Positions 6,941-64,000 of a stretch of DNA of 64,000 nt are shown here, piece by piece. The notes beneath the pieces were generated by a model. The model saw nothing but the letters and a program-made list of their open reading frames with translations, was not told the DNA's origin and did not search any database. Every line of letters starts with the position of its first letter. Position 1 is the first letter of the stretch. Location of the stretch: contig JADFYJ010000003.1 of assembly GCA_015233115.1 (NCBI GenBank), positions 40,536 through 104,535 of the forward strand, given 5' to 3'. Both the position numbers and the translations under genes were made by a program. This DNA comes from Candidatus Omnitrophota bacterium (GTDB lineage Bacteria > Omnitrophota > Gorgyraeia > Zapsychrales > Zapsychraceae).

Positions 6941-7041
6941 TTTGTACAATTTGTCGACGGAAATCGTACTAAACACACGGTTTCCGTTTTTTGGTCTATT
7001 TCCTGATTTTTCCCCTGTTTTTCCTGCTTTTACCATAGCTT

Positions 7042-8095: not shown

Positions 8096-8144
8096 TTTTT
8101 TATGTGTTTAGCCGCAAGAATGTGAAGAAAGGAAACCCATTAGG

Positions 8145-8504: not shown

Positions 8505-8598
8505 CAATTGTATTTTTGGAAAAATTAAAATATAATGCATACAGTTTCGTGTGACGCAAGAATATGTTATACTAATTGTAAATTAGGGGGAGAAGTTT

Positions 8599-9255: not shown

Positions 9256-9256
9256 A

Positions 9257-9949
9257 ATGAATTCTCTTCAAGAATTATCAAGAGTTGCTACAATAACGAA
9301 TTTAAGATTTACAACGCCTAATACGGATGCTTGTAATGAAGCCTTTAAGGTAAAACTTGAAAAGAGAGATGCTCTTTTGTATACGCAATGGACAAGATTG
9401 TTCGGACAAAGCCCTGTTGAGCTAAGAGATTCAAGTGATATAAAGTATGTTGTTAGCGTCGAGAATGATGATATTATGACGACAACTTTAATCAGCGATT
9501 CGTTTTATGTTTACAGTCAAAATTGGCGGCAAAGTACAAATGGTGCAGATTTTGGCGAAATATTCGCTTATGAAAAAGATGACAGCTGCGATGAGATAGA
9601 ACAAATTTATTTTAGTTTAAATTCATCTTTAAATTTGAAGCCAGCTGCCATCGGCGAAGAGATAGAAGACGCGGTTTTTGATTTCTGTAAAAAAGAAAAT
9701 TTATTACAAGAATTTTATGCGTTTGATTGTTTTATTAAAAAATGTTTCATAAATATAATAAATATCAATGTCAAGGCAAAGCCAGATCCGGAAATAAAAA
9801 ATAAAAATCAAGTGATAGTTGAAGTGTTTATTAAGGATTCTATTCGCGGGATTATTGATATGCAAAATAATTTTTTTGAGTTGGTTTTTAAGGAATTTAA
9901 TGGCTCTATTTTCGATAAATTCGTTTTAAAGTGTGAAAAATATGGATGA
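9257..9949 (+). CDS. Hypothetical protein, cargo operon gene 2 (230 aa, acidic, no recognised domain)
   Basis: Translationally coupled to gene 1 (TAAaATG). It overlaps gene 3. Confidence 0.5.
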   Translation: MNSLQELSRVATITNLRFTTPNTDACNEAFKVKLEKRDALLYTQWTRLFGQSPVELRDSSDIKYVVSVENDDIMTTTLISDSFYVYSQNWRQSTNGADFGEIFAYEKDDSCDEIEQIYFSLNSSLNLKPAAIGEEIEDAVFDFCKKENLLQEFYAFDCFIKKCFINIININVKAKPDPEIKNKNQVIVEVFIKDSIRGIIDMQNNFFELVFKEFNGSIFDKFVLKCEKYG

Positions 9950-10346
9950 GATTAATTTTTTGAATTTGGCTAAAGAACTTGATGAACGGCCTCCGGTGAC
10001 CGAAGAAAAAATTCGAACAGCTGTTAGTCGGGCGTATTATTATTTATTTTTAAAAATAAGAGCTTCCTTAGAGTCTGTAGGGTTAAAGTTCAAAAGGGCT
10101 GCCGAAGATCACGACGAAGTAAAAAATATGCTTTTAAAAACTGATATTACTGAAGCTCGAGCAGTTGGACTTTCTTTAGAAGAATTAAGAAGAAAAAGAA
10201 ATGATGCTGATTATGAAATGGAAATAGGAGGGTTTGGATTTGGATCAAACTCTGCTACTTTGGCAATTGCACAAGCGGAGAATGCAGCAGAACAATTTAA
10301 TCGCATAAATCGGAATTGTCTTAAAGAGAAAATTCGCGTAAATTAA
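9942..10346 (+). CDS. HEPN-like alpha-helical protein, cargo operon gene 3
   Basis: VSRAYYYLFL and LRRKRNDADYE resemble the HEPN Rx4-6H region, but Y sits in place of H. The ATG at 9942 overlaps the stop of gene 2. The track offers an alternative GTG at 9933. Confidence 0.4.
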   Translation: MDEINFLNLAKELDERPPVTEEKIRTAVSRAYYYLFLKIRASLESVGLKFKRAAEDHDEVKNMLLKTDITEARAVGLSLEELRRKRNDADYEMEIGGFGFGSNSATLAIAQAENAAEQFNRINRNCLKEKIRVN

Positions 10347-10377
10347 TTTTTAAAAATTATTTATACGCGCGCTTTGT

Positions 10378-10710
10378 TTATTTTCGATGTTCACAAATAT
10401 TTTTATAAATGCTAAGCAGTAGGTGGGCATCTTTGAAATTGTGTTTATTGAGAAGTCTTTTTAATTCTTGAGTAGATTTTGTCGTATCCTCGCTGCTTAT
10501 TACCTCCTCAAATAATTCATTTATTCTTACCTCTAAAGTCTCTGCTATTCGGGTGATGGTGTCTAGGGAAGGTTGTTTAATCCCTCGTTCGATTAATCCG
10601 ATATAGTTGTCGCTCGCTTCAATTTTCTCAGCTAATTGTGATTGAGTTAATCCCGCTTGTTCTCGAAAGAAACGAATCCGTTTGCCTAACATCCGGTAAG
10701 GTTTTTCCAT
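10378..10710 (-). CDS. XRE-family helix-turn-helix transcriptional regulator
   Basis: HTH_3 signature LTQSQLAEKIEASDNYIGLIERGIKQPSLDTITRIA. Divergent from the downstream cargo gene. Confidence 0.8.
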   Translation of the reverse strand: MEKPYRMLGKRIRFFREQAGLTQSQLAEKIEASDNYIGLIERGIKQPSLDTITRIAETLEVRINELFEEVISSEDTTKSTQELKRLLNKHNFKDAHLLLSIYKNICEHRK

Positions 10711-10883
10711 AGTAAACCTCCTTGCCAGATATGATATTCAAAAAAATTATTAAGACCACATACCATAAGTATGTTTTTTGCTGGAAAAAACTATCCATAA
10801 GTTATATTATTGTTAAAATTGGATAAATTTTTCCAATGTAAAGCGACAAAAAATAGAATTGGGTCTTAATAGAGGTTAGGAGT

Positions 10884-11837
10884 ATGCAAAAAAATATTGG
10901 TAAAATTTTAAAAGTTCCTTTACGCAATCTTTGGAAAAAAGAAGATAAGGATTTTACTAAATGGATGGAAGAAAATATTGATTATTTGAATGACATTTTG
11001 GATTTTGAAATTTCAATTGAATCGAGCGAAGAAAATGTTGGCCCCTTCCGCGTAGATCTTTACGGTGAAGATGGTTTTGGGCGAAAAGTTATTATTGAAA
11101 ATCAACTTGAAAAAAGCGACCACGATCATCTCGGTAAACTTTTGACATATTTAATCAATCTTGAAGCTAAAATTGCAATCTGGATTTCTAGCGATCCCGT
11201 TGAGGAGCACTCTGCTGTCATAGATTGGTTAAATGAAGTTGCCCCGGATGATATGCTTTTTTATTTAATTAAGATTGAGGCCATTGAAATAGAAGGGCAG
11301 TCTATGGCTGCCCCACTATTTACAATTGTTAAAGGGCCAACAGCTGAGGCTAAACAGTTGGGAAGTGAGAGGAAAGAATTTGCACAACGTCATATTGTAC
11401 GAAAGCAATTTTGGGAGCAACTTTTAGAGAGAAGTAAGAATAAAACAAAGTTGTTTTCCAATATTTCTCCGAGTATGGATCATTGGTTGTCTACGGGTAT
11501 TGGAAAATCCGGCATTGCATTGAGTTATTTGATTACAAATAAGTACGCTGGTTGTGATCTTTATTTTTCGAGAGGAAGGAATAAGGCAGACGATGAAAAT
11601 GTAAATAAAATTTGGTTTGATGAATTATACAAAAATAAGGATCGGATTGAAAAAGAATTTGGCGCGCCGTTGGATTGGCAGCGATTAAATGATAAATGGG
11701 CTTCAAGGATCGCGTGTCATTACCAAGGCTTGACTTTGCAAGATGAGAAAAATTGGCCTATGATTCAAGATAAATTGATTGAAACAGCAATTCGTATGGA
11801 AAAAGTCTTTGCGCCGTTTATAAAGCAATTGGAGTAA
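10884..11837 (+). CDS. PD-(D/E)xK nuclease-like protein (DUF4268-like pattern)
   Basis: The motif VDLYGED...VIIENQLEKSDHDHLGKLLTY fits D...E-x-K plus the conserved IENQLE.tDHDHLG block. Assigned from memory of the family. Confidence 0.4.
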   Translation: MQKNIGKILKVPLRNLWKKEDKDFTKWMEENIDYLNDILDFEISIESSEENVGPFRVDLYGEDGFGRKVIIENQLEKSDHDHLGKLLTYLINLEAKIAIWISSDPVEEHSAVIDWLNEVAPDDMLFYLIKIEAIEIEGQSMAAPLFTIVKGPTAEAKQLGSERKEFAQRHIVRKQFWEQLLERSKNKTKLFSNISPSMDHWLSTGIGKSGIALSYLITNKYAGCDLYFSRGRNKADDENVNKIWFDELYKNKDRIEKEFGAPLDWQRLNDKWASRIACHYQGLTLQDEKNWPMIQDKLIETAIRMEKVFAPFIKQLE

Positions 11838-11838
11838 A

Positions 11839-12744
11839 ATGAAAAAAATAGTTATTGGTCTTATATTATTTTTGTGCTTTCAAATAGCTATTGTTAAGGC
11901 AGAACCCAATATTTCCATCCCCGAAGATATTTTCAAAGCCTTGGATAATCTCAAAGACGACAATTTGCAATTGAACTGTACGGAAGCCGCCCTTTATCTT
12001 TATGATCGAAGAGAAAAAATTGTTGATATTTTAATAAATGTATTACCGAAACTTGATTGGCAAGGCCAAGATGTCATATTAAAAATACTTACTGAGACCG
12101 AAACCTATAGTCCGAATGAATATATTATAAAACTTATGCTTGAGCGGATTAAAGATGAAAGGAGTCCAAATATACGTAACGCTCACGACATTTATCATTA
12201 TGACTATATTCCTTACATTAGAAAATATGCGAAGCAGTTTAAGGACGAGCTTAGGACATATATAAAGATTGGAAATATTAGACAGCTCTGGGTTGTGACG
12301 CACATACTAGTCAAAGAAAATATTTTTGATGAAATAAGCGATGCTTATAGTCCTAAGTTGATGAATTTTGTAATCAAAAATTTGCGGGATGATAATATCG
12401 ATATGAATGCATCTTATTCGGCAAGAATTTGTTTTTTAATCGGTAAAAATAGTCTTCCGTACCTAAAACAAGAAGTGAAAGATGGCGACGCTCAATCCAA
12501 GGAAATAGCAAAGACTTTAGTCAGATATATTTCTGAAAATCGCCGTTTTAATCCGGATGATTTATGGGAATTTGTTGATGAGCTAAGTGTCTCGGGTGTT
12601 ACATTAGGAAGCACGTATTTAGACAGAATTGAGCGAGAAGGGGCCAGCAAATTGCCGGATTTTTGGTTTGGGTCAAATGTATCTAAACAGCCTAAATTTT
12701 TAATAAGTGGAAAATATACAAACAGACAGCAAATGAGCGAGTAA
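11839..12744 (+). CDS. Secreted hypothetical protein (signal peptide)
   Basis: N-terminus MKKIVIGLILFLCFQIAIVKA. Confidence 0.5.
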   Translation: MKKIVIGLILFLCFQIAIVKAEPNISIPEDIFKALDNLKDDNLQLNCTEAALYLYDRREKIVDILINVLPKLDWQGQDVILKILTETETYSPNEYIIKLMLERIKDERSPNIRNAHDIYHYDYIPYIRKYAKQFKDELRTYIKIGNIRQLWVVTHILVKENIFDEISDAYSPKLMNFVIKNLRDDNIDMNASYSARICFLIGKNSLPYLKQEVKDGDAQSKEIAKTLVRYISENRRFNPDDLWEFVDELSVSGVTLGSTYLDRIEREGASKLPDFWFGSNVSKQPKFLISGKYTNRQQMSE

Positions 12745-12750
12745 TTAAGA

Positions 12751-13431
12751 ATGAAAAGGATATTGATATTTATCATTTTTTTATTTGTTTCAAGCGTATC
12801 TGCCGCACAAGAACTATCGTCTGTAGAAAAGATTAAATTTCAAGAAAAGAAGGGAAGCTGTGAAGTCACTGGGGAGTATCCGCAATTTAAGATCCTAAAA
12901 ATTTCTGCCAACAAACTTAAAAATGTAAATAAAGAGATAAATGTGTTTGCTCGAAGTCTTTTTATAAAGTTTTTAACAAAAGATGCCATCGGACAACAAA
13001 TCAAAGAAGATTTCAAGACAAGCAGTAATGGGAATACGTTTGATATTGATTTTAATGTAATAAGGGCAGATACAAGGTACGTTAGCGTAATTTTTCAAAC
13101 TTATTTTATGCAAGAAAACGCACCTCACGGCGTTGGACATTTTTATGCGTTTAATTATGATGTCGAACATTCAAAAATTATTCATTTAAGTGATCTTTTT
13201 AAGCCGGGTACTGACTATTTAAAACAACTTCGGGGTTTTTGTAATCGCGATCTTGAAAAACAATTAGGGAACGGGTTTTATGATAAGGACGCTGTAAATG
13301 ATAGTACACAATTTACTTTTGACCAAGAAAGTTTAATTATTCATTTTAGTGCTTATGAAGTTGCTTGCTATGCTGCTGGTATGCCAGAAGTCAAAATTTC
13401 ATTTAAGAAGCTGATAGGGCTTAAAGAATGA
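12751..13431 (+). CDS. Secreted protein, DUF3298/DUF4163 (RsiV C-terminal-like) family guess
   Basis: Signal peptide. The ...APHGVGHFYAFNYDV...IHLSDLF pattern resembles DUF3298. Confidence 0.4.
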   Translation: MKRILIFIIFLFVSSVSAAQELSSVEKIKFQEKKGSCEVTGEYPQFKILKISANKLKNVNKEINVFARSLFIKFLTKDAIGQQIKEDFKTSSNGNTFDIDFNVIRADTRYVSVIFQTYFMQENAPHGVGHFYAFNYDVEHSKIIHLSDLFKPGTDYLKQLRGFCNRDLEKQLGNGFYDKDAVNDSTQFTFDQESLIIHFSAYEVACYAAGMPEVKISFKKLIGLKE

Positions 13432-13604
13432 GAATTTGTGGCTGTTAAAAAAAGGGTATCAAAAAGTCCTGTATGAAATTAGCCGATTTATGGCTGTTTC
13501 CAAAACGAACGTTTTTTAAACATTTGGAGAGAATGTTGGTAGAGGTGAGGACGGGCTCAATTATAGCGGTGTGTTATAACGGATGACAGTATAAACAATA
13601 ATAG

Positions 13605-14048
13605 ATGCGAGGTGAAGAAATGAAAATCATTGTCATTGCTTTATTGTCAGTATTTTTAATTGGCTGTTCGGCTGCATATTGGAATCAGGTAGCGGAAAAT
13701 ATGCGGAACAACCCGTATCATCCTCCTCAATATCAATCTCCCCAACAAAATAATCAGCCGTCTATGATTGACCAGTATCATCAAATGCAACAACAAACGT
13801 ATCAAAATCAATATCAACAACAACAGTTACAATTACAGCAACAGCAAATGCAGTTACAGCAACTACAAATACAAGCTCAACAGCGACAGCAGCAGCAACA
13901 AATTGGTCAATATTTAATGCAGCCTTTGTCCCAATATCATCCGTTAAATGTCCCCAATAACGTACCAGAACAGTCGGGAAGGGTAACAACACATTGTACT
14001 TCAGCATCGATAAACGGGGGAGGAGGAATGGATTGTACCTCTTATTAA
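13605..14048 (+). CDS. Gln-rich lipoprotein
   Basis: Lipobox LIGC. Long poly-Q/L region. The true start may be the ATG at 13620 (MKIIV). Confidence 0.5.
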   Translation: MRGEEMKIIVIALLSVFLIGCSAAYWNQVAENMRNNPYHPPQYQSPQQNNQPSMIDQYHQMQQQTYQNQYQQQQLQLQQQQMQLQQLQIQAQQRQQQQQIGQYLMQPLSQYHPLNVPNNVPEQSGRVTTHCTSASINGGGGMDCTSY

Positions 14049-14149
14049 TTAACAAACAAAATTAATCAGTCGTATCAGTTATTTCGGGAAAAGCTCTTCC
14101 GCTTCATTAATTTTAGAAAATATTTTTTTGTTTATGAGACATAAAGAAA

Positions 14150-14641
14150 TTAGGATGGCTTTCGGCTGTCCTTTATTGCTTCTGTAAGTCCTAAATCTTC
14201 ACAATGATTTTTTAAAACCTCTTCGCCCTCTTTGGTTAAATCCAATAAAATTTGTTTATTTTTAGTGTTTGGCATTAAAGATATTTGCGCTTTCAAGTTT
14301 TTAAATATTGAAAGGGCTTGAATAAGACTTGAATACATTGGCAGATTCAAAATCTGTTTCGACAAAGATTTTTTAACATCTTTTAGATCAAAAGGGAAAG
14401 ACCAATTGACGTAGGGGGCTGTTTCTTTGTCATCTAAGACATTAGCAAGGCTAATTGCAATAGGGTAAGATGGCTTTTGTTTGGAGGCTTCTAACCTAGA
14501 AAGATAGCCTTCTGTTATACCGACTTGTTTTGCGACTTCGAGCAAGGATAGGCCTTTATCCATACGAATTTTCCTAATTCTTTGGCCCATCGTTTTGACA
14601 TCTTTTGGATAATCTGATTTTCTCATACGTTTATAATCCAC
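14150..14641 (-). CDS. CI-like XRE-family repressor of the element
   Basis: N-terminal HTH LSLLEVAKQVGITEGYLSRLE plus a C-terminal domain. Divergent from xis-int and shares an operator region with it. Confidence 0.7.
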   Translation of the reverse strand: MDYKRMRKSDYPKDVKTMGQRIRKIRMDKGLSLLEVAKQVGITEGYLSRLEASKQKPSYPIAISLANVLDDKETAPYVNWSFPFDLKDVKKSLSKQILNLPMYSSLIQALSIFKNLKAQISLMPNTKNKQILLDLTKEGEEVLKNHCEDLGLTEAIKDSRKPS

Positions 14642-14642
14642 A

Positions 14643-14718
14643 TTTCTTACCTACTTGTCAAGAAAATAGTTTACAAAAGGGAAATATTGGGGTATAATCT
14701 TACTTGTTAGGTAAGAAA
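14643..14718. promoter_or_regulatory. Divergent switch region: 11-bp inverted repeat TTTCTTACCTA / TAGGTAAGAAA flanking a sigma70-like promoter (TTTACA-17-TATAAT with TG extension) driving xis-int
   Basis: -35 at 14670-14675 and -10 at 14693-14698 with a 17-bp spacer. The inverted-repeat arms are at 14643-14653 and 14708-14718. Confidence 0.45.
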
Positions 14719-14739
14719 CAATAAAAAAGGAGTGTCAAA

Positions 14740-14919
14740 ATGGGTGATTTTATGACGGTTCAAGAAATAGCGGCTAAAGTTAGGAAGGCGACAAAAACAA
14801 TTTATCATTACGTCGAAACTGAAGTAATTCCGGCGAATTTAATTATCCGAGTTGGCAACTCAATTCGTATGCGACCTTCGGATTTTGAAAAGTGGATTGA
14901 AGGACAGCGAGGCAGATAA
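14740..14919 (+). CDS. xis: Excisionase / AlpA-like small DNA-binding protein (HTH_17)
   Basis: 59 aa. MTVQEIAAKVRKATKTIYHYVE fits a MerR-type HTH. SD AAAAAGGAG. Immediately upstream of the integrase. Under 60 aa, so not in the track. Confidence 0.6.
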   Translation: MGDFMTVQEIAAKVRKATKTIYHYVETEVIPANLIIRVGNSIRMRPSDFEKWIEGQRGR

Positions 14920-14920
14920 A

Positions 14921-15919
14921 GTGGCGCATTTTCGTAAAAGAGATAATGGGTTTTACTATGCTTATTGGAAAGAAAAACGTTCTAATGGGTTATGGTACAC
15001 AATGGCTAAAGCATTAAAGACTAAAAATAAATTTGTTGCTCAAAAACGGTTTAATAATTTATTCGCCGAAGATTTGGGAGAAGTTAAAGAGTGTTATGTT
15101 GAAGATTGGGTAGAGCTTTTAAAGCGAAGCTTGGGTACAGAAGACTTAGATTCCAAAACTACAACCAAATATATTTTTCACGCCGAACGATTTATTGGTT
15201 TTTTTAATGGTAGGGTCAGGAAAATGAGCGATTTTAGACACGAACACATTATTGAGTTCATAAATAATTTAAATCAGTCCAATTATTCAAAGAGCACGGT
15301 TGCCGGTTACGGGCGAAGTTTACGAAAAATGTTTAACATTGCTTTGGACTTAGAATATGTCCGCAAGAGTCCAATGAAGAGGTTTAAAGTAGGCAAAATG
15401 GAACAAAGACAAAGATTCTTTAATCCATCGGAGATAATTAAGATACTAGAAGTTGCTAAGGAAGATCAATTTCAATACGCACTTGTTTTGTACTCATTAC
15501 AGACGGGTTTTCGAATTGAAGAGGTTGTGGATTCCTTCTGGGAAAACATTAACCATACAAACAGAACGATTACAGTGATAGGAAAAGGAAAAAAATCCCG
15601 GCGTCAAAAGATTCCGGCGTTAGCATACGAAGCTATAATGAAATTGAATGGTAAATGGCCTACGCTTTTTGGTAAGCAACAAAAGCAGTTGTATCGCGAT
15701 GTAAAGGTTGTTTTAGCAAAAGCTGACGTAAAAGGGTCGCCGCACGTCTTTCGGGACTCCTATGCTACATATTCGATTAAAATAATGCCTTTAAGCACGT
15801 TACGGGAGAGGATGGGGCATAGTAGCTTGCTTCAGACCGATAAATATACGCACGCATTAAATTCGGAAGTTGACCCAGAAGTAATGAAATATTTTGAAGA
15901 TTGGCAAATTCAGAGGTAA
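14921..15919 (+). CDS. int: Tyrosine recombinase / phage integrase
   Basis: C-terminal catalytic residues ...R...HVFRDSYAT...GHSSLLQTDKYTH carry the R, H-x-x-R and Y. The GTG start is coupled to the xis stop. The track's ATG at 14852 would overlap xis by 68 nt. Confidence 0.8.
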   Translation: MAHFRKRDNGFYYAYWKEKRSNGLWYTMAKALKTKNKFVAQKRFNNLFAEDLGEVKECYVEDWVELLKRSLGTEDLDSKTTTKYIFHAERFIGFFNGRVRKMSDFRHEHIIEFINNLNQSNYSKSTVAGYGRSLRKMFNIALDLEYVRKSPMKRFKVGKMEQRQRFFNPSEIIKILEVAKEDQFQYALVLYSLQTGFRIEEVVDSFWENINHTNRTITVIGKGKKSRRQKIPALAYEAIMKLNGKWPTLFGKQQKQLYRDVKVVLAKADVKGSPHVFRDSYATYSIKIMPLSTLRERMGHSSLLQTDKYTHALNSEVDPEVMKYFEDWQIQR

Positions 15920-15973
15920 TTATGGATTACAATTTGGGTTACAAATGGCTAGTTTTAGGTGAAAATAGTATGA

Positions 15974-16022
15974 ACGGAAGATTCTCAGTCTTTAAACACG
16001 GGTCCGAATCCCGTTGGGGCTA
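15974..16022 (+). repeat. attR core: 49-bp copy of the tRNA-Glu 3' end
   Basis: Identical to 6892-6940. Confidence 0.85.
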
Positions 16023-18927: not shown

Positions 18928-19386
18928 ATGAAGCGAGTTTGTTTATTAATTTTATTATGCGTTGGTCTTTATGGGTGCGTGACAGTTGAGAAAGAAGATC
19001 GTCCGCCTGCAAATACCGCTGAGCACAAACAATTGATACCTGTTAATTTAATTCGACCGGGCATGAGTTCAGCAGAAGTAAAATCTGTATTGGGAAATAA
19101 TATGGTGATCGGATATCAAAAAAAGGACAAAACAGGGATTTATGAACCCATTAATATGGCGATCCCTTTAAAAAGCGAAGATTTTAAGAGAGCTCAAGAA
19201 AAATATCGAGCTGATTTTTATTATGTGGAGGTGAGATTACCAGACGGGATTATTTCTGACGAAGAAATAACGCCCGTTGTTTTCAAAAATGATTTGGTGG
19301 TGGGGATCGGTTGGGATTTTTACAAGAGTTTAAAAATAGGGGACAGCGCCCTATTTCTCAAGGATAAAAAAAATGATGAGAAATAG
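18928..19386 (+). CDS. Lipoprotein, hypothetical
   Basis: Lipobox LYGC. The C-terminus (IGDSALF) is encoded by the palindromic repeat element. Confidence 0.5.
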   Translation: MKRVCLLILLCVGLYGCVTVEKEDRPPANTAEHKQLIPVNLIRPGMSSAEVKSVLGNNMVIGYQKKDKTGIYEPINMAIPLKSEDFKRAQEKYRADFYYVEVRLPDGIISDEEITPVVFKNDLVVGIGWDFYKSLKIGDSALFLKDKKNDEK

Positions 19387-19402
19387 GGCGCTGTCCCCTA
19401 TT
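19335..19402. repeat. Palindromic repeat element copy A (22-bp arms AATAGGGGACAGCGCCCTATTT / AAATAGGGCGCTGTCCCCTATT, 24-bp spacer)
   Basis: The arms are a perfect reverse complement. It spans the lipoprotein stop and the trmB start. Confidence 0.75.
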
Positions 19403-20314
19403 TTGGTGGATTTTGACAGTTTCCCCAGGCCGTTAAACTGGCCGGAGATTTTTGGCAGGCCGGGAAAAATTGTCGTCGAGATCGGCTTTGGCATGGGCGA
19501 GGTTCTGATCCGGGAAGCGGGAAAAGATCCTCAGGTTAATTTTATCGGCATTGAAGAGCATTGGACGCGTATCACCCGAACCATGACAGGTATTTCTCGT
19601 CAACAGGGTGTGGTTGGAGGATTGGATAACATCCGGATTTTGAAGTTAGACGCATGGGTGGCTTTTGAGCGGTTGTTTTCTCCGCAGAGCATTGATCATA
19701 TTTTTTGCTTGTTTCCATGTCCGTGGCCAAAAGAAAAACACGAAAAACACCGTTTATTCTCTCAAAAATTTTTACGCTTAGTAAATAGCCGCCTGAAAAC
19801 GGGCGCGGCGCTGCGGATTGTTACGGATTTTAGGCCTTTTTACGATTGGGTGCTCAGTCAGAATGTGGATGCCGGATTTGCTTCTGCGGTTACGGCAACA
19901 CTTGAACCGCAATTTAATACTAAGTTTGAAAAAAAATGGGCGGCGCAAGGACAGGAAAAATTTTTCGAAATTATTTTGGAAAAGCAAAAACATATCGAGG
20001 TGCCGGTTGAGGAGGACAAGGAGTTGAAGGTTTACAAATTAAAAAATTTTGATCATAAGAAATTCGTGTTTCAGGATCACATTGGAGAGGTCACCGTGAT
20101 TTTAAAAGGATTTTTTTATGATGCTGAACAAGAAAAAGCTCTGGTTCAGCTTTTGGTGGCAGAAGAACAGATCACCCAGTATTTTTGGGCTATGATTGGG
20201 AAGCGTAAAAATGATTGGTTTCTTCAAAAAGTGGAAGGCCAAAGGTTTTTTGCGACGCCGGGAATCACGTTGGCGTTAGATTTAGTTTATCAGGCAGTAG
20301 AAAAAATAGCATAG
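19373..20314 (+). CDS. trmB: tRNA (guanine-N7)-methyltransferase with C-terminal extension
   Basis: Motifs VVEIGFGMGE and FIGIEEH. N-terminus MMRNRALSPIL is encoded by the repeat element. Confidence 0.7.
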   Translation: MMRNRALSPILVDFDSFPRPLNWPEIFGRPGKIVVEIGFGMGEVLIREAGKDPQVNFIGIEEHWTRITRTMTGISRQQGVVGGLDNIRILKLDAWVAFERLFSPQSIDHIFCLFPCPWPKEKHEKHRLFSQKFLRLVNSRLKTGAALRIVTDFRPFYDWVLSQNVDAGFASAVTATLEPQFNTKFEKKWAAQGQEKFFEIILEKQKHIEVPVEEDKELKVYKLKNFDHKKFVFQDHIGEVTVILKGFFYDAEQEKALVQLLVAEEQITQYFWAMIGKRKNDWFLQKVEGQRFFATPGITLALDLVYQAVEKIA

Positions 20315-20337: not shown

Positions 20338-20463
20338 TAAAGCGCGCGGGTTGGGCGGTTTGCATTTAAACCGAATCCTTCGCTCAAACAACCTTGGCGA
20401 AGCGCCAAGGAAACTCGCTCGGGGATTCGGTTTTAACGCCAACCTTGTGTTTGGGCACGCGGT
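20338..20463. repeat. ~125-nt highly structured intergenic repeat, copy 1 (copy 2 at 63947-64000, cut by the window end)
   Basis: ~54 nt align at ~90% identity between the two copies. Nested stems: AAACCGAATCC/GGATTCGGTTT, CCTTGGCG-AAG-CGCCAAGG, GGTTGGGCG/CGCCAACC. Confidence 0.5.
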
Positions 20464-27161: not shown

Positions 27162-27168
27162 AATTTTA

Positions 27169-29778
27169 TCACCGCGTCGGGGAGTTTTGGTCCACCGACG
27201 CGGTGGTTTTTAACTCGTTTATTAAGTTTAAAGCTTCGATCGGCGTTAAATTATTCACGTCGATGCTGTCCAGTTTATCCATAATGGCTTGCGATTTATG
27301 GTCTGGCGCAGGTGTTGTGAACAGGGTTAGCTGTTCTTGCCCACAACGCGCGTTTCTTAAGCTTTCCTTGAGATCTTGCTTTAACTCCAGTTTGGTTAAA
27401 ATAGTTTTCGCGCGATCAATGATGGTTTTAGGGATGCCAGCCAGTTTCGCGACGTATATTCCATAACTATCGTCTGTACTGCCGGGCACGATTTTGTGTA
27501 AAAAGATAATTTCTTCATCCCATTCTTTGACTGCCACATTGTAATTTTTTACGCCAGAATGTTCATCAGCCAAAGCCGTCAGCTCATGAAAATGGGTGGC
27601 AAATAAAGTACGTACTTTGGCGCGTTGTAGATGTTCAGCTAACGCCCAGGCCAGGCTTAATCCGTCATACGTGCTGGTGCCGCGGCCAATTTCGTCGAGA
27701 ATGACCAAACTGCGGTCGGATAAATTGTGCAATATATCCGCGGCTTCATTCATTTCCACCATAAAAGTGCTTTGTCCTTTGGAAATATCGTCGTGCGCGC
27801 CAATGCGGGTAAAAAATTTATCAATGATGCCGATATGAGATTTTTTAGCCGGGATATAGCTTCCGGCCTGCGCCATGATGGCGAGAATCGCGGTTTGGCG
27901 GATGTACGTAGATTTGCCGGACATATTAGGGCCGGTTAAAATGATGAGTTGATTGTCCTCACGATCGAGCAGGGTGTCATTCGCGATAAAGGTGTCAGAC
28001 AAGTGTTTTTCGACCACCGGGTGCCTGCCTTCTTCAAGCGAGAGGGTAAAATCATCACTGATTTCCGGGCAGGTATAGCCGTGATTTTGCGCGAGCGCGG
28101 TTAAAGAATATATCGCGTCAATTGAAGCAATATTTTGGCACAAATCATGCAGCACCAAAGAATGCCGCAGGATTTCTTGTTGAATTTCTTTGATAATGGT
28201 ATTTTCAATGGCTAGAATTTTATCTTGCGCTGTCAGAATTTTTTCTTCGTATTCTTTTAATTCTTGGGTAATATACCGCTCACCATTGACCAGGGTTTGT
28301 TTGCGGATGTAATGCGAGGGAACAGACGCCAGATTGGTTTTGGTGATCTCAATGTAATAGCCGAACACTTTATTAAATCCGACCTTAAGGGAATTTATGC
28401 CTGACCGCTTGATTTCATCTTCTTGAAATTTTTTAAGCCAGGCGTGGCCGTTATTCTGTATGTTCTTAAGATCATCGAGTTCCGCGTTAACCCCGGTACA
28501 AATAACTTTGCCTTCGGGTTTTGCCAAAGGGATGTCATCGTTAATCGTTTGAACCAGCTTTTCGCGTAGATCAGCAATGTCGGTCAAAGTAAAAAGAATA
28601 TTATCTTGTATTAGTTGGGACAAGAGGATCGCCATGTCCGGAATCAAAGCGAGAGTGTTGCGGATGGCTAATAGATCTTTGGGGTGTGAATAGCCACAGC
28701 TTAAGCGGGAAATATTTTTTTCCAAATCAGGAATTTTATCCAGGAAAATTTTTAAAGACGGCAGAATTTTTGAATTGTTTTTTAACAAAGTCACCGCAGA
28801 CAAACGCTGTTCAATCCGGTCTTTATTTTTTAATGGATGAAAAAGCCAAAACCATAATTTACGTTTACCCAGAGCCGTGCGGGTGTTATCAATAGCTTGG
28901 AAGACCTGGTCGAGCTCTAGTCCGCGCTGGGCAGCAGGAGAAATGAACGCGAATTCTTCATCCGTATACAGGGAAATCCGGTCGATGTGATGCAGTGGTT
29001 GTTTGTTCATCTCCTTAAGATATTGCAGTAAAGCTCCGACTGCGCCGACACAGAGCAGTTTATTTTCTAGGCCAAATCCGTGTAAGTTTAAAACTTTAAA
29101 ATGTTCGATGATGGTTTTGCGGCTGATTTCCGGGTTAAAACTCCATGTTCCATAAGGACTTAAGGTTATAGCCTTGGAACGCAGCAGGGGGGATTTGAGT
29201 AAAGTCTTGAAATGATCCGCATCATGGTCTGGAAACACACATTCATATATAGGTAAGCGGCAAAGAATTTGGATCAGCTGATTTTCATTTAAAAGTAATT
29301 CTTGTGTTTGGATGGTTCCATTGACCGGATCAGTAAAGGCCAAGCCATAAGCTTTTTTATCGCGCCATACAGCGAGGATATACCGTGTGGCATCGTCTGT
29401 TTCATCCAAATATGTCCCTGAGGTGATCACGCGGATAATGTCCCGTTTAACAATACCTTTGGCTAAAGCCGGATCTTCTAATTGTTCACAGATTGCGATT
29501 TTAAAGCCGGCTTTAACTAACCGGGCAATGTAACTTTCACTGGCGTGATGAGGAAAGCCGCACATGGGGACGTGGTTGGCAGACCCTTTTCCCCGGGATG
29601 TTAAGACTAGATCCAGGACGCGGGATACGGTTTTAGCGTCATCAAAAAACATCTCATAAAAATCACCGAGCCGGAAAAATAAAATACAATCGCGGTGCTG
29701 GGATTTAATTGAATGATATTGCCGCAGCATAGGCGTCATACTTGTTTCATCGGAAGGTATTATTTCTGCCGGATTCAT
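27169..29778 (-). CDS. mutS: DNA mismatch repair protein MutS
   Basis: Walker A GPNMSGKSTYIRQ. 869 aa. Confidence 0.95.
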   Translation of the reverse strand: MNPAEIIPSDETSMTPMLRQYHSIKSQHRDCILFFRLGDFYEMFFDDAKTVSRVLDLVLTSRGKGSANHVPMCGFPHHASESYIARLVKAGFKIAICEQLEDPALAKGIVKRDIIRVITSGTYLDETDDATRYILAVWRDKKAYGLAFTDPVNGTIQTQELLLNENQLIQILCRLPIYECVFPDHDADHFKTLLKSPLLRSKAITLSPYGTWSFNPEISRKTIIEHFKVLNLHGFGLENKLLCVGAVGALLQYLKEMNKQPLHHIDRISLYTDEEFAFISPAAQRGLELDQVFQAIDNTRTALGKRKLWFWLFHPLKNKDRIEQRLSAVTLLKNNSKILPSLKIFLDKIPDLEKNISRLSCGYSHPKDLLAIRNTLALIPDMAILLSQLIQDNILFTLTDIADLREKLVQTINDDIPLAKPEGKVICTGVNAELDDLKNIQNNGHAWLKKFQEDEIKRSGINSLKVGFNKVFGYYIEITKTNLASVPSHYIRKQTLVNGERYITQELKEYEEKILTAQDKILAIENTIIKEIQQEILRHSLVLHDLCQNIASIDAIYSLTALAQNHGYTCPEISDDFTLSLEEGRHPVVEKHLSDTFIANDTLLDREDNQLIILTGPNMSGKSTYIRQTAILAIMAQAGSYIPAKKSHIGIIDKFFTRIGAHDDISKGQSTFMVEMNEAADILHNLSDRSLVILDEIGRGTSTYDGLSLAWALAEHLQRAKVRTLFATHFHELTALADEHSGVKNYNVAVKEWDEEIIFLHKIVPGSTDDSYGIYVAKLAGIPKTIIDRAKTILTKLELKQDLKESLRNARCGQEQLTLFTTPAPDHKSQAIMDKLDSIDVNNLTPIEALNLINELKTTASVDQNSPTR
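27170..27205. repeat. CACCGCGTCGG...CCGACGCGGTG palindrome inside the last 12 codons of mutS (related copy forms the leuS terminator)
   Basis: 11-bp arms. Encodes TTASVDQNSPTR on the minus strand. Confidence 0.6.
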
Positions 29779-39834: not shown

Positions 39835-40695
39835 ATGTTTAACTATACGGGAGGGTTTGTGAATAAACGTAATTTAATTATCGCAGGGATCGCTGTGATC
39901 ATCGTGGCTTTGATTTGGCTGGGTGTGGCTAAAAAACACGCCGAATCTGTGCCGGTAGTTGAAGCCGCTTCAAGCACGACTGAAAAGAATTCTTCAGCCC
40001 GGGATATGTATCAAAAAGCCGTTGAACTGCAAAAAACCGGCAAACAAGAAGAAGCTAAAAAAGTTTATCAAAATATAATGACTGAGCATCCTGATTTTGA
40101 GCAGATCGAGACTGTTCAAACTTCATTAGGGTCATTGAATGTGGAGCAAATTTTTTCCAAAAAAATGATTGATGGTAAAACGGTAGAGTATGAAATTGCT
40201 CCGGGAGATTCATTAGCCAAGATCGCTAAAAAATTTGGGACAACGATGTCTTTAGTCAAGCGTAGTAATGGCATGAAAACAGATACAGTCCGTTTGGGTC
40301 AAAAGTTGAGGATATGGACGGGTAAATTTAACATTTTGGTCAACAAGGCGCAAAATGTTTTGATGCTCAAGGAAGGCAATGAGGTTGTTAAAGTTTACCG
40401 CGTCTCTACTGGAAAAGAAAATTCAACACCTGTGGGAACATATAAAATCAAGGTCAAACAGGTGAATCCAGTTTGGTATAGCAAAACAGGAGTGTATCCT
40501 CCAGAAAGTCCTGAGAACCAATTGGGAAGCCGCTGGATGGGATTTGACCTTGAAAGTTATGGAATTCATGGTACTATAGCCCCCGATAAAATTGGCCAGC
40601 AAGTTACCGCTGGATGTGTACGTATGGCCAATCCGGATGTAGAAGAATTGTACGATTTAGTTCCGCAAGGGACGGAAGTGCGGATAATTGATTAA
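39835..40695 (+). CDS. LysM-domain L,D-transpeptidase (YkuD/ErfK family)
   Basis: LysM: YEIAPGDSLAKIAKKFG. Catalytic GIHGT...TAGCVRM. Confidence 0.8.
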   Translation: MFNYTGGFVNKRNLIIAGIAVIIVALIWLGVAKKHAESVPVVEAASSTTEKNSSARDMYQKAVELQKTGKQEEAKKVYQNIMTEHPDFEQIETVQTSLGSLNVEQIFSKKMIDGKTVEYEIAPGDSLAKIAKKFGTTMSLVKRSNGMKTDTVRLGQKLRIWTGKFNILVNKAQNVLMLKEGNEVVKVYRVSTGKENSTPVGTYKIKVKQVNPVWYSKTGVYPPESPENQLGSRWMGFDLESYGIHGTIAPDKIGQQVTAGCVRMANPDVEELYDLVPQGTEVRIID

Positions 40696-40697
40696 AA

Positions 40698-40916
40698 GTA
40701 ACCGAGTAACCGAGTAACCGAGTAACCGAGTAACAGAGCAAAAGCGAACGGGGACAAAAATTTAAAGAACACGATAAAAGAAGACTCGGAAATAAAAACA
40801 TAAAAGCTCGGATAATCGGAATATAATTAATTTTTTGTAATTTTTAGTTTTTTTGCGAATCGTTTTTTGTTGTTTCTTTGTTACTTTGTTACTCTGTTAC
40901 TTTGTCACTTTGTTAC
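40698..40916. repeat. Inverted arrays of GTAACCGAG/GTAACAGAG units (5 units, 40698-40742) and their complements TTTGTTAC-type 8-mers (5 units, 40877-40916) bracketing the accA upstream region
   Basis: Direct reading. The left array starts 3 nt after the stop of the transpeptidase gene. A second, related element lies at 49971-50106. Confidence 0.65.
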
Positions 40917-40937
40917 TATTAAAATTGGAGACAGTGA

Positions 40938-41888
40938 ATGGCTATTTTGGAATTTGAAAAACCTATATATCAGATTGAAGAAAAAATTCAGGAATTGCGG
41001 GATTTGGGAGAAAAAAATTCAGCAGGTATTTCACCGGAAATCAAGCGGTTACATAAAAAGCTTGAGCAATTGAAAAAAGAGATTTATGGGAAGTTGACGG
41101 TATGGCAGAGAATTCAAGTTGCCCGCCATCCGGATCGTCCTTATATGCTGGATTATGTCCGTGCCATGATGACGGATTTTGTGGAATTGCATGGGGACCG
41201 GCAATTCGCGGATGATTTTGCGATGCTCGCTGGTTTTGCCATGTTTGAAGGTGAAAAAGTGATGGTGATTGGCCAGCAAAAAGGCCGTGATACCAATGAA
41301 AATATTAAACGTAATTTTGGCTGTGCTCATCCGGAAGGATACCGGAAAGCTATGCGGATGATGCGGTTGGCTGAAAAATTTCACGTTCCCATTTTAGTTT
41401 TTGTGGATACTCCAGGTGCGTATCCGGGCGTAGGAGCTGAAGAGCGCGGGCAGGCTCAGGCCATTGCGGAAAATTTACGGGATATGATGCTGATTAAGAC
41501 ACCTATTATCGCGACTGTGATTGGTGAAGGCGGCAGCGGCGGTGCTTTAGGGATAGGTGTAGCGGATCGAGTGTTTATATTGCAACATGCCTATTATTCT
41601 GTTATTTCACCGGAAGGGTGCGCATCCATTCTTTGGAGAAATGCGGTCAAAGCTCCGGATGCCGCAGAAGCGTTAAAACTTATGGGGGAAGATTTAGTAA
41701 AATTTAAAGTTATCGACGGGATCATTCCTGAGCCGTCCGGCGGAGCGCATCGTGATCCGGAATTGGTTTGCAGCGGTATGCGGAAATCCTTTCTTGAAAA
41801 TTTGGCAGCGCTCAAAGCCTTATCCACCCAAGATCTCCTGGATAAACGCTACCAGCGGTTTCGTCAAATTGGCGAATTTATAGAATAG
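40938..41888 (+). CDS. accA: Acetyl-CoA carboxylase carboxyltransferase alpha subunit
   Basis: LDFEKPIYQIEEKIQEL...ARHPDRPY...FVDTPGAYPG. Confidence 0.9.
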   Translation: MAILEFEKPIYQIEEKIQELRDLGEKNSAGISPEIKRLHKKLEQLKKEIYGKLTVWQRIQVARHPDRPYMLDYVRAMMTDFVELHGDRQFADDFAMLAGFAMFEGEKVMVIGQQKGRDTNENIKRNFGCAHPEGYRKAMRMMRLAEKFHVPILVFVDTPGAYPGVGAEERGQAQAIAENLRDMMLIKTPIIATVIGEGGSGGALGIGVADRVFILQHAYYSVISPEGCASILWRNAVKAPDAAEALKLMGEDLVKFKVIDGIIPEPSGGAHRDPELVCSGMRKSFLENLAALKALSTQDLLDKRYQRFRQIGEFIE

Positions 41889-45523: not shown

Positions 45524-45537
45524 GTTATGGCGCTTTA

Positions 45538-45687
45538 GTCGTAGGGGCGATCTCCTGATCGCCCGAACTATAAAGATTTATAAATTTAACATTCTAGGGC
45601 AGTTGTTTTGATTTGGTCTGAAATGTTTAATTGAAATATAAAAACAAATATTTTTTAAGCGGGCGATCGGGAGATCGCCCCTACGAC
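45538..45687. repeat. MITE-like element: 28-bp inverted repeats (GTCGTAGGGGCGATCTCCTGATCGCCCG / its complement with 1 mismatch) around a 94-bp AT-rich core
   Basis: The arms are at 45538-45565 and 45660-45687. Each arm is itself a hairpin (GGGCGATC-N4-GATCGCCC). Confidence 0.5.
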
Positions 45688-47334: not shown

Positions 47335-49842
47335 TTGTCGAATATGTCATACAATACCAATGAAATTCAAAGAATAGAAACCAAGTGGCAGAAGATTTGG
47401 GATGAGAAAAAGATATTTAAATCCGGAGTAGATAATGGCCGGGAAAAATATTATGTCTTAGAAATGTTCCCTTATCCGTCGGGGAAAATACATATGGGCC
47501 ATGTGCGGAATTATACGATTGCGGATGTCATTGCGCGGTTTCGCATGATGCAGGGATTGAATGTACTGCATCCGATGGGCTATGACGCTTTTGGCCAGCC
47601 GGCTGAAAATGCGGCCATCAAACGCGGGGTTGATCCGGCTGAATGGACTTATGGCTGTATTGATGAAATGACGCATGAATTAAAACGCATGGGTTTTTCC
47701 TATGATTGGGATCGGAGTTTGTCGACTTGCGACGCGGAATATTACAAATGGAATCAATGGATATTCTTGAAGATGTTCGAGCGTGGTTTGGCGTATAAAA
47801 AAGAGTCGCCGGTGAATTGGTGCCCGAGCTGTGACACGACGCTGGCGAATGAAGAAGTTATAAATGGCGCGTGCTGGCGATGCAAAAGTGAAGTGCAACA
47901 AAAAAATTTAAGCCAATGGTATTTGAAGATTACGGATTACAGCGAGCGGTTGCTCAAAGATTTAGATTTATTGACGCAATGGCCGGAACGCGTCGTGACT
48001 ATGCAGAAAAACTGGATCGGCAAAAGTTTTGGCGTAGAAATATTCTTTAGAATAGGGGACAGCGCCCTATTTCAAGAAGGAAATAGGGCGCTGTCCCCTA
48101 TTCTTAAAGTTTTTACCACCAGGCCGGATACGATTTTCGGCGCAACGTATGTGGTTTTAGCTCCTGAACATCCTTTGGTTGATGCGATCACAACGCCGGC
48201 GAACAAAGCGTCTGTAGAGGCTTTTAAAAAAGAAGTGGCGGGTGTCAGTAAAAGCGAACGGGTATCTGGCGATTTAGAGAAAAAAGGAATTTTTACCGGT
48301 AGTTATGTGGTCAATCCGGTGAATCAGGAATTGATACCGGTATGGATCGCGGATTATGTATTAATGGATTACGGTACCGGCGCGATCATGGCTGTTCCGA
48401 CGCATGATCAACGTGATTTCGAATTTGCTAAAAAACATCAGTTGCCGATGAAAATTGTTATTCAAGATCCGGCGTGGCCTGATTTAAAAGTTGAACAAAT
48501 GGATGCTGCTTATGTAGAGCAAGGGAATTTGACAGGCTCTGCCCAATTTGACGGTATGAATAATCAGGACGCAATGCAGGCGATTGGCGAATGGATGGAG
48601 AAATCCAATATTGGCAAAACCACGGTGCATTGGCGCTTGCGTGATTGGCTGATTTCCCGCCAGCGGTATTGGGGCACGCCAATCCCGATGATTTATTGTG
48701 ATACCTGCGGGGTAGTTCCGGTGCCGGAAAATCAATTGCCGGTTGAACTGCCGAAAAAAATTCAGATTACCGGACAGGGCGGAAGTCCATTAGCGTATTG
48801 CCAGGATTTTGTTAATGTGAAATGCCCGAAATGCGGTAAGCCTGCCCGCCGGGAAACCGATACCATGGCCACCTTTTTTGATTCGTCGTGGTATTATTTA
48901 CGTTTTTGTTCAGCGCGGAATTCGTCTCAGGTTTTTGATAAGCAGGAAGCCAAGTATTGGATGCCGGTTGACCAATACATCGGCGGGATTGAACACGCGA
49001 TCCTGCATTTATTGTATTCCCGTTTCTTCACGAAATTTTTTAAAGATTTGGGATTGGTTGATTTTGATGAACCGTTTGTGCGTCTCTTGACCCAGGGTAT
49101 GGTGTTAAAAGACGGGGAAGTCATGTCTAAGTCCCGCGGCAACACGGTTGACCCGGATACAATTTTAGTGAAATACGGCGCTGATCCTTTGCGCGTATGT
49201 ATTTTGTTTGCCGCGCCTCCGGAAGATCAGCTGGAGTGGAGCGACGGCGCAGTGGACGGTTCGTGGAAATTTTTAAATCGTTTGGATCGATTGGCTGATG
49301 AACGATTCAAAGGGGTAAAGGTGGGTTATGATTTTAAAACTTTATCCGGCGCGGCTCAGGAATTAGAGCGCGAGCGCAACGCGACCATTAAAAAAGTGAC
49401 TGGTGATTTGGAAACGTATAAATTTAATACGGCAGTCAGCGCCATGATGATCATGTTAAATTCGATCGAGAAATTTGTGCCGCAAAATGAAATCGATCAA
49501 GCGGTATTCGACCAGACTTTGCGCTCCTTCGTATTGATGTTGGCGCCGTATGCCCCGCATTTGTGCGAAGAGCTTTGGCAGAAAATGGGATCAGATGTGA
49601 CGAGTGTCAGCCAAGTCAAATGGCCGCAATATGATGAGGCTTCATTACAGCGTGCCGTGGTTGAAGTCGTTGTGCAGATCAACGGAAAACTGCGTTCCAA
49701 ACTGGAAGTCCCTGTTGAGCTCAACGAAGCCCAAGTCCGCGAATTAGCTTTAAAAGATGAAAAAATTCAAAAGTGGGTTGAAGACAAGCCGGTGCGGAAA
49801 TTTATTTATGTGCAGGGAAGATTGATTAATATAGTCGTATAA
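47335..49842 (+). CDS. leuS: Leucine--tRNA ligase carrying an in-frame palindromic-repeat insertion
   Basis: HMGH and KMSKS (VMSKSRGN) motifs. 835 aa. Confidence 0.95.
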   Translation: MSNMSYNTNEIQRIETKWQKIWDEKKIFKSGVDNGREKYYVLEMFPYPSGKIHMGHVRNYTIADVIARFRMMQGLNVLHPMGYDAFGQPAENAAIKRGVDPAEWTYGCIDEMTHELKRMGFSYDWDRSLSTCDAEYYKWNQWIFLKMFERGLAYKKESPVNWCPSCDTTLANEEVINGACWRCKSEVQQKNLSQWYLKITDYSERLLKDLDLLTQWPERVVTMQKNWIGKSFGVEIFFRIGDSALFQEGNRALSPILKVFTTRPDTIFGATYVVLAPEHPLVDAITTPANKASVEAFKKEVAGVSKSERVSGDLEKKGIFTGSYVVNPVNQELIPVWIADYVLMDYGTGAIMAVPTHDQRDFEFAKKHQLPMKIVIQDPAWPDLKVEQMDAAYVEQGNLTGSAQFDGMNNQDAMQAIGEWMEKSNIGKTTVHWRLRDWLISRQRYWGTPIPMIYCDTCGVVPVPENQLPVELPKKIQITGQGGSPLAYCQDFVNVKCPKCGKPARRETDTMATFFDSSWYYLRFCSARNSSQVFDKQEAKYWMPVDQYIGGIEHAILHLLYSRFFTKFFKDLGLVDFDEPFVRLLTQGMVLKDGEVMSKSRGNTVDPDTILVKYGADPLRVCILFAAPPEDQLEWSDGAVDGSWKFLNRLDRLADERFKGVKVGYDFKTLSGAAQELERERNATIKKVTGDLETYKFNTAVSAMMIMLNSIEKFVPQNEIDQAVFDQTLRSFVLMLAPYAPHLCEELWQKMGSDVTSVSQVKWPQYDEASLQRAVVEVVVQINGKLRSKLEVPVELNEAQVRELALKDEKIQKWVEDKPVRKFIYVQGRLINIVV
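48051..48102. repeat. Palindromic repeat element copy B inside the leuS coding sequence (same 22-bp arms as copy A, 8-bp spacer)
   Basis: Encodes RIGDSALFQEGNRALSPIL between GVEIFF and KVFTTRPDT, i.e. ahead of the CP1 editing domain. Confidence 0.75.
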
Positions 49843-49852
49843 ACCGTTGGAC

Positions 49853-49899
49853 CACCGCGTCGGTGATCCAAAGGTCACCGACGCGGTGATTTTGTTTGG
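49853..49899 (+). terminator. Rho-independent terminator of leuS built from a CACCGCGTCGGTGA palindrome
   Basis: Perfect 14-bp stem with 8-nt loop, then ATTTTGTTTGG. Confidence 0.7.
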
Positions 49900-49970
49900 C
49901 TTTGACATTTAGATTTTTTTTCATATAATGAAACTATCTCGCAGTTCCTGATCAACCCCCGCAAAAAATA

Positions 49971-50106
49971 GTAACATAGTAACCGAGTGACAGAGTAACA
50001 GAGTAAAAGCAAAAAAACAAAAAGAAAAAAACCTGTGTTTTTTGTTCTAATGTTTTTATGCCAATAGTTTTTTCTCTGTTACTCTGTCACTCGGTTACTC
50101 GGTTAC
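49971..50106. repeat. Second inverted array of GTAACNGA octamers (left arm GTAACATA GTAACCGA GTGACAGA GTAACAGA, mirrored right arm) upstream of comEA
   Basis: A ~135-bp imperfect palindrome with a ~65-bp A/T-rich centre. Confidence 0.65.
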
Positions 50107-50125
50107 TTTCGAAACGGGCAAGCAT

Positions 50126-63946: not shown

Positions 63947-64000
63947 TTAAGCGCGCGGTAGGGCGGCTTGCATTTAAACCAAATCCTTCGCTCAAACAAC
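63947..64000. repeat. Copy 2 of the structured intergenic repeat (5' portion only; the window ends)
   Basis: AAGCGCGCGGTAGGGCGGCTTGCATTTAAACCAAATCCTTCGCTCAAACAAC against 20339-20391. Confidence 0.6.

Follow-up and report, generated by a model that had tools for sequence, protein, structure and literature searches.

The 64,000-nt stretch of Omnitrophota DNA analysed here (the window) carries one palindrome inside the leucyl-tRNA synthetase gene leuS and a second copy of it across the junction between a lipoprotein gene and trmB. leuS (47344-49842, + strand) encodes 832 aa counted from NCBI's ATG, and the palindrome in it (48051-48102, + strand) has the form AATAGGGGACAGCGCCCTATTT-CAAGAAGG-AAATAGGGCGCTGTCCCCTATT. 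The second copy (19335-19402) has the same arms and a longer spacer; it overlaps the end of the lipoprotein gene (18928-19386, + strand), whose product has a signal peptide and an LYGC lipobox, and the start of trmB (PF02390; 19373-20314, + strand). An initial annotation had placed the palindromes at these positions and had read them in frame in LeuS, in the lipoprotein (as IGDSALF) and in TrmB (as MMRNRALSPIL); the arms and coordinates are confirmed in the sequence, and the translated open reading frames (ORFs) agree with it. It had also likened the element to the Rickettsia palindromic elements (RPEs). This comparison we would replace: the element is better described as a doublet of repetitive extragenic palindromic (REP) units, of the kind called REPIN, since its unit elsewhere flanks a transposase that resembles the REP-associated tyrosine transposases (RAYTs) and belongs to the Y1 family.

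Anatomy of the palindromes

The repeated unit is 23 nt long, (A/G)AATAGGGGACAGCGCCCTATTT, and forms perfect inverted pairs at 48050-48103 and 19334-19403. Every unit folds by itself into a hairpin with an 8-bp stem (AAATAGGG/CCCTATTT) and a 7-nt loop, GACAGCG, so that the two arms of a palindrome are distinguished solely by the orientation of this loop. Across 188 arms the conserved unit is (a)AA-ATAGGGGACAGCGCCCTAT-TTt, and the sequence on either side is not conserved. In leuS the left unit as delimited by this consensus (GAATAGGGGACAGCGCCCTATTT, 48050-48072), which folds alone, is translated (R)IGDSALF; the spacer (CAAGAAGG, 48073-48080), which is the loop of the long hairpin, gives QEG, and the right unit (AAATAGGGCGCTGTCCCCTATTC, 48081-48103) gives NRALSPI(L). 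At the junction the left unit (AAATAGGGGACAGCGCCCTATTT, 19334-19356) encodes IGDSALF, the start of the lipoprotein tail. The spacer there (19357-19380) contains AAGGA at 19360-19364, the trmB ATG at 19373-19375 and the remainder of the tail, and the right unit (19381-19403) encodes the NRALSPI of TrmB and holds at 19384-19386 the TAG that stops the lipoprotein.

A repeat finder extends the arms to 28 nt at both sites (48046-48073/48080-48107, 96% complementary; 19333-19360/19377-19404, 100%), and the element as a whole, two 23-nt hairpins, measures 52-72 bp. Folded as single-stranded DNA, the leuS and junction elements reach -30.6 and -33.3 kcal/mol (z = -11.5 and -11.9), values that none of 200 shuffled sequences equalled; folded as RNA they reach -49.1 and -50.9 kcal/mol, with perfect stems of 25-28 bp. 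A 13-nt core has four matches in the window at two mismatches or fewer, against 0.5 expected, and none of 100 shuffles gave four. When degenerate copies were sought in the window at up to six mismatches, nothing besides the four arms was found.

A scan of the entire window against Rfam at gathering thresholds returned four tRNAs only, and at permissive thresholds the element matched just generic long-hairpin microRNA-precursor models, far under their cut-offs; it is therefore not a curated RNA family. A full-text literature search for the core sequence on both strands brought up only unrelated papers, apparently with primer or gene sequences. CRISPR repeats were rejected because the units are inverted and irregularly spaced, and integron attC sites because core sites are absent.

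Consequences for LeuS, the lipoprotein and TrmB

The LeuS reading frame passes through the element as ...FFRIGDSALFQEGNRALSPILKVFTTRPD, the element corresponding to about residues 236-254. An alignment of the 60 best matches (the protein itself and 59 homologues) places the extra segment in this protein alone, with none of the 59 sharing it. The closest relative (82% identity) has FFKVKDSNEVIKVFTTRPD at the position of FFRIGDSALFQEGNRALSPILKVFTTRPD, and its DNA (L115; L-numbers are labels of retrieved stretches or loci) provides the empty site: 27 nt separate TTTTTT from AAAGTTTTT there, against 57 here. The net gain relative to L115 is thus 30 nt or 10 codons, and in this segment the protein has a net 10 residues more than all close homologues. 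The initial annotation was right about the insertion and slightly high in putting it at about 11 residues. The proposal that the element is a selfish-type, lineage-specific palindrome read in frame also stands: the element-encoded peptides occur in none of the 119 other listed LeuS homologues, 119 other TrmB homologues and 149 other lipoprotein homologues, and the element recurs in at least 54 other assemblies (below). The opposite outcome, a peptide common to orthologues without palindromic DNA and no further copies of the repeat, is not what was found.

An AlphaFold2 model of LeuS built from 43 sequences has a mean pLDDT of 82.6, and in it residues 241-249 (ALFQEGNRA) fall below 50 and form a coil separating the strands at 227-237 and 253-258. 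The insert is thus modelled as the disordered tip of a surface beta-hairpin. This hairpin runs into TTRPDT, which we take to be the threonine-rich motif of the LeuRS CP1 editing domain. In the Neisseria gonorrhoeae LeuRS structure 7NUA a native loop of similar length is found here, so the position tolerates changes in length. The LeuS of another member of the Omnitrophota (P0056, from L123) has a different, G+C-rich insert of 14 residues, SYLIASPRSGPAGRQDIL, at the same hairpin tip (residues ~241-258); no inverted doublet was detected in its DNA.

At the junction, one element alters both genes. The lipoprotein ORF ends ...KSLKIGDSALFLKDKKNDEK, and the element encodes its final 16 residues together with the stop codon. 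Its homologues are mostly 135-145 aa long, and similarity to them ends at about residue 136 of the query, a few residues before their own C-termini; the REP-encoded IGDSALF starts at residue 137. The element accordingly gives the lipoprotein a C-terminal tail of 16 residues, for which the TAG of the right unit is the stop codon. On the other side, the ribosome-binding site of trmB, its start codon and its first ~10 residues all lie inside the element. TrmB begins MMRNRALSPIL, from the same start codon as in the NCBI annotation, and homologues have N-termini of equal length (for example MKLSETSLSPLVDF vs MMRNRALSPILVDF here), so the right unit replaces the native N-terminus and does not extend it. 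The right arm had been credited with both the N-terminal residues of TrmB and its start context. It does encode the residues; the ATG (19373) and the AAGGA 8 nt upstream of it belong to the spacer, within the 16-nt loop of the 28-bp hairpin. Just past trmB, at 20349-20392, is one copy of a 44-nt repeat, the other copy of which (93% identical) is at the window end (63957-64000).

The repeat family and its transposase

GTDB representatives (one genome per species) were scanned for the exact 19-mer ATAGGGGACAGCGCCCTAT, and all family counts refer to the matches listed; taxon labels are those of the record titles and are partly unreliable. At least 114 stretches contain the 19-mer, spread over at least 54 species-level assemblies whose labels name several phyla; chance alone would give about four matches (our own arithmetic from the stated collection size). 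Local G+C of these stretches ranges from 0.35 to 0.63. Copy number is four units in our 64-kb window; of two other assemblies, one has at least 24 loci and the second at least 10. There are 63 tight pairs among the matches, of which 61 are in one inverted orientation, none in the opposite inverted orientation and two direct; the spacers between their 19-mers measure 8-84 nt, mostly 22-25. Of the 80 unpaired arms, about 65 lack a partner that could be recognised within 130 nt, and singlets as well as doublets therefore occur. Direct repeats of 3-6 nt were sought at five candidate boundaries and found in only 0-4 of the 61 pairs, so that no target-site duplication is detectable.

Three loci of one genome (L086 3521-3776, L088 1671-1905 and L108 5843-6077) share a conserved non-coding interior of ~215 nt enclosed by the same two REP units; the whole element folds into one long hairpin, has no counterpart among curated RNA families and is a larger non-autonomous relative of the doublets. 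Many doublets (L014, L025, L032, L037, L044, L048, L059, L083, L084, L101, L104, L114) have partial copies of the unit's outer stem (AATAGGGG... or ...CCCTATT) no more than 14 nt beyond their ends, perhaps left there by earlier insertions or by cleavage inside a resident unit. Orthologous doublets are common to two species in two cases, L006/L052 and L039/L110. In both, near-identical loci come from assemblies labelled Planctomycetia (CAYVCD) and Omnitrophota (JAPLMH), and some of the 'Planctomycetales/Planctomycetia' record labels are therefore probably wrong.

What might move such a repeat? In L015, L023, L031, L051, L058 and L093, two inverted units 716-840 nt apart enclose a single ORF of ~226 aa. 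This ORF matches Y1_Tnp of Pfam (PF01797, E = 2e-16); among NCBIfam models it scores highest, at 65 bits, with NF047646 (REP-associated tyrosine transposase), as against 27 bits for the IS200 model. A PDB search with the single sequence gave no match; with a profile of 25 homologues the best hit was E. coli TnpA-REP (4ER8), with HxH, WQxRF and YIxxNPV aligned. H60, H62 and Y119 are invariant in the transposase alignment. The system resembles IS200/IS605 and the palindrome-associated non-autonomous derivatives of that family in its Y1 HUH transposase, its single-stranded DNA hairpins and the lack of target-site duplication. The ends of IS200/IS605 elements are two different hairpins in the same orientation, whereas the ends here are identical and inverted, and the protein scores higher with the RAYT model.

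Among the stretches listed there is at most one transposase locus per assembly. Transposases flanked by the exact unit are 44-58% identical to one another (one close pair is 85%) and are paraphyletic in a rough neighbour-joining tree of eleven sequences. Homologues that nest among them and share 59-65% identity with the L093 protein have variant units at their flanks (AATAGGGACAGACACCTATT, AAATAGGGACAGCGCCTATTT, AATAGGGACAGATACTATT, ATAGGGGACAGACACTAAT), which makes the GACAGCGCCC form look ancestral and strongly conserved, the alternative being horizontal spread. To judge from these sequences, the unusual trait of the family appears to be a repeat that has stayed invariant while its transposase diverged to 44-58% identity.

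Coding overlap was judged by stop-to-stop ORF criteria on the 61 doublets. ORFs continue through at least six of them, with 60 or more codons before and after, several more doublets sit just within the 5' or 3' ends of long ORFs, and the unit's own TAG terminates an ORF of 100 codons or more at 17 loci that bear doublets. The extragenic location typical of REPs is absent from both window copies, which overlap coding sequence. At least four more in-frame doublets were found in three host proteins confirmed by Pfam, all outside the Pfam domain cores: a chorismate-binding enzyme, in which the insert separates the two domains, a family-2 glycosyltransferase (GT2), and a Proton_antipo_M membrane subunit with two separate inserts at orthologous positions in L039 and L110. 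Of the three frames of the unit, one has the TAG stop and two are open. One stop frame in three is ordinary for a 23-mer and so provides no evidence of coding adaptation; filtering by selection is a sufficient explanation of the coding pattern. In one orthologous pair of doublets (L039 5212-5278 and L110 6857-6917) the spacer appears inverted, giving the loop peptides STHTHIIHG and SNLSVGR; this is the outcome expected of recombination between inverted arms.

The window has other repeats. A second palindrome family (ACCACCGCGTCGG...CCGACGCGGTG, containing CGTC) occurs at 27168-27207 and 49851-49890. Its first copy encodes the last residues and the stop of MutS (...TTASVDQNSPTR*; ORF 27169-29778, minus strand) at a distance of eight bases from the start codon of mutL (27161), and the second lies nine bases past the leuS stop codon. 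A third family is a canonical GTAG-tagged REP (GTAG-GGGCGATC-TCCT-GATCGCCC), present at 45537-45566 and 45658-45687 as an intergenic inverted pair ~90 nt apart upstream of mnmA. Units of 8 nt (AGTAACCG and variants, AGTATGTN) are arrayed in tandem at 40678-40764, 40862-40940, 49951-50029 and 50068-50122, and also at 24628, 32429, 42961 and 61159; the arrays are intergenic, face one another in inverted orientation and in one place lie just downstream of leuS. Finally, the 3' part of tRNA-Glu(CTC) (6866-6941) is copied exactly over 49 nt at 15974-16022, 9 kb downstream, and the interval 8000-16000 has a G+C of 0.32-0.36 against ~0.42, which together suggest an integrated island whose attachment sites are duplicated.

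Origin and significance of the doublets

We consider it very probable that both sites are REP doublets, that is, non-autonomous elements of the REPIN type, and that the mobiliser of the family is the RAYT-like Y1 (HUH) transposase acting on single-stranded DNA. Among the grounds for this are that the same unit flanks the Y1 transposase in six other genomes, that the tight pairs share one inverted orientation almost without exception and that target-site duplications are undetectable. In the REPtron/REPIN arrangement of E. coli and Pseudomonas, likewise, a transposase lies between inverted REPs and many short doublets lie elsewhere (PMC3116915, PMC5581495). The transposase would recognise the small REP hairpin on single-stranded DNA, then cut and rejoin without making a target-site duplication. 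Insertions that destroy genes would be lost, and the survivors would be copies read in a stop-free frame of the element at tolerant positions. In leuS the copy is translated and makes the beta-hairpin tip before TTRPDT 10 residues longer. At the junction, the lipoprotein gains its 16-residue tail from the left unit and spacer and stops at the TAG in the right unit; the spacer also supplies the ribosome-binding site and ATG of trmB, and the opening residues of TrmB are replaced by the right unit. We infer that LeuS and TrmB stay functional, and that the transposase moves doublets, the mobile entity being the doublet or the single unit.

Several observations weigh against the REP-doublet reading. 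An unpaired GTAG or CGTC tag, as borne by the classified REP superfamilies, is missing from the unit, which begins with AAATAGGG and has its ATAG inside the stem. The transposase score is under the NF047646 family cut-off of 80 bits, and the match to 4ER8 is marginal (E = 0.005). A tblastn search of the 64-kb window for the transposase gene returned nothing below E = 0.15, and the doublets seen in this genome are just the two in the window. The remaining points bear on what exactly moved: the palindrome in leuS is 52-62 nt long but the net gain is 30 nt, so that either ~22 nt of host loop was lost or two single units were added; the spacers vary in length and sequence among copies, a poorer fit to a doublet copied whole; and the junction spacer carries a usable-looking ribosome-binding site and ATG, which a doublet inserted as such does not explain. 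These last three leave room for a variant in which single REP hairpins were added separately, or by gene conversion with copies elsewhere, around host DNA that now forms the spacers. The abundance of unpaired arms favours this variant too, as does a loose match (11 of 18 positions) around the leuS spacer to the loop codons of the relative, but in such A-rich sequence a match of this quality could equally be due to chance. The doublet as the unit is favoured by the 61:0 bias in orientation and by the preference within single genomes for spacers of 22-25 nt, and the transposase gene is flanked by the identical arrangement of units; we therefore regard separate addition of singlets as rather unlikely.

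It could also be that the hairpins are domesticated, being kept by the host as mRNA stabilisers, RNase III sites, terminators or translational couplers of the lipoprotein gene and trmB. The RNA folds of about -49 and -51 kcal/mol with their perfect stems would suit such roles, as would a trmB ribosome-binding site and AUG displayed in a hairpin loop, the 17 loci at which a long ORF ends at the unit's TAG, and the in-frame copies kept at orthologous sites in two species (L039/L110). The in-frame hosts, though, are functionally unrelated, as neutral survivors would be, and retention across species is equally explained by the difficulty of precise excision; a host function seems to us improbable. 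The inverted terminal arms and short non-coding interior recall a miniature inverted-repeat transposable element (MITE), left over by deletion from a DDE-type insertion sequence bounded by terminal inverted repeats, but target-site duplications were not found, each arm is self-complementary and the sole gene found between arms is that of a Y1 HUH transposase, all of which makes a MITE very improbable. Least credible of all is a palindromic chimera of assembly or amplification, or an ancestral segment of LeuS. The source is a metagenome-assembled genome and chimeras can produce palindromes; against this, the identical 19-mer recurs across the independent assemblies, the long ORFs are intact at both copies, and the insert is in none of the close LeuS homologues examined.

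How does the REP-doublet family compare with known systems? The nearest are the REPs and bacterial interspersed mosaic elements (BIMEs) of E. coli with TnpA-REP (RayT), and the REPIN-RAYT system of Pseudomonas fluorescens (Bertels & Rainey 2011, PMC3116915; Bertels et al. 2017, PMC5581495). Shared with these are a short self-complementary unit, inverted pairs that make one long hairpin, inverted units flanking a Y1 HUH transposase, the lack of target-site duplication, and repeats that far outnumber transposase genes. On the other hand, the transposase here is ~20% identical to E. coli RayT and has an extra C-terminal region of ~90 residues, the unit has no unpaired GTAG tag, and many copies overlap coding sequence. 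Moreover, described REPIN-RAYT systems have repeats peculiar to their lineage and reportedly pass on mostly by vertical descent (PMC5581495), whereas here an identical unit accompanies transposases that are 44-58% identical, under several phylum labels.

REPs inside genes have been catalogued before. Di Nocera et al. (2013, PMC3733652) described intragenic GTAG- and CGTC-tagged REPs in Opitutus terrae, Thioalkalivibrio, Thauera and Rickettsia conorii, with in-frame singlets and dimers in known genes, dimers that encode ~20-30 residues, copies at the N- or C-terminal ends of ORFs and some genes with two insertions. In-frame dimers, terminal copies and double insertions all recur in the present family, which differs in repeat sequence, tag and host phylum; it also has an aminoacyl-tRNA synthetase among its hosts, and a term search of the main text of PMC3733652 found none there. 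RPEs (Ogata et al. 2000, as summarised in PMC10969869 and PMC3733652) are described in those summaries as in-frame palindromes in functional genes, thought to sit at tolerant positions, and the first to be described as ~150 bp long with a conserved encoded peptide (PMC10969869). The present element is likewise a palindromic repeat in frame within functional ORFs; going by that description, it departs from RPEs in its 52-72 bp, its two 23-nt hairpins, its link to a Y1 transposase and its Omnitrophota host. Ordinary MITEs also produce in-frame fusions (PMC10969869). The suggestion that a family of this kind would be unusual was hence too strong, intragenic REP singlets and dimers of 20-30 residues being on record from several phyla. 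Given that in-frame REPs were catalogued in 2013 (PMC3733652) and that in-frame fusions are reported for MITEs (PMC10969869), in-frame REP insertion as a phenomenon is already known, and what is new is the family itself, which is undescribed and unusually widespread.

Several consequences follow for Omnitrophota and for the family. In an uncultured phylum, an essential aminoacyl-tRNA synthetase bears a translated mobile hairpin beside its editing motif. A single element has remodelled both sides of a gene junction, giving one gene a tail and stop, and the next a ribosome-binding site, start codon and N-terminus. Such elements make lineage-specific indels in marker genes, which annotation pipelines silently miss. 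The family ties in-frame palindromic insertions of the RPE kind to an identifiable Y1 transposase, so that the mechanism is testable in vitro, and current REPIN-RAYT models do not predict a repeat that is identical beside strongly diverged transposases and under different phylum labels. More tentatively, and with considerable doubt on our part, the family may be an ancient REP-RAYT lineage in which, under several phylum labels, the 23-nt unit has remained identical during the divergence of its transposase, and whose doublets habitually enter coding sequence, supplying loops, tails, stops and starts. If so, this would contradict the view of REPIN-RAYT systems as lineage-specific and extragenic, and it would make the family a general source of small protein insertions in uncultured anaerobes, comparable to the RPEs and with an identifiable enzyme.

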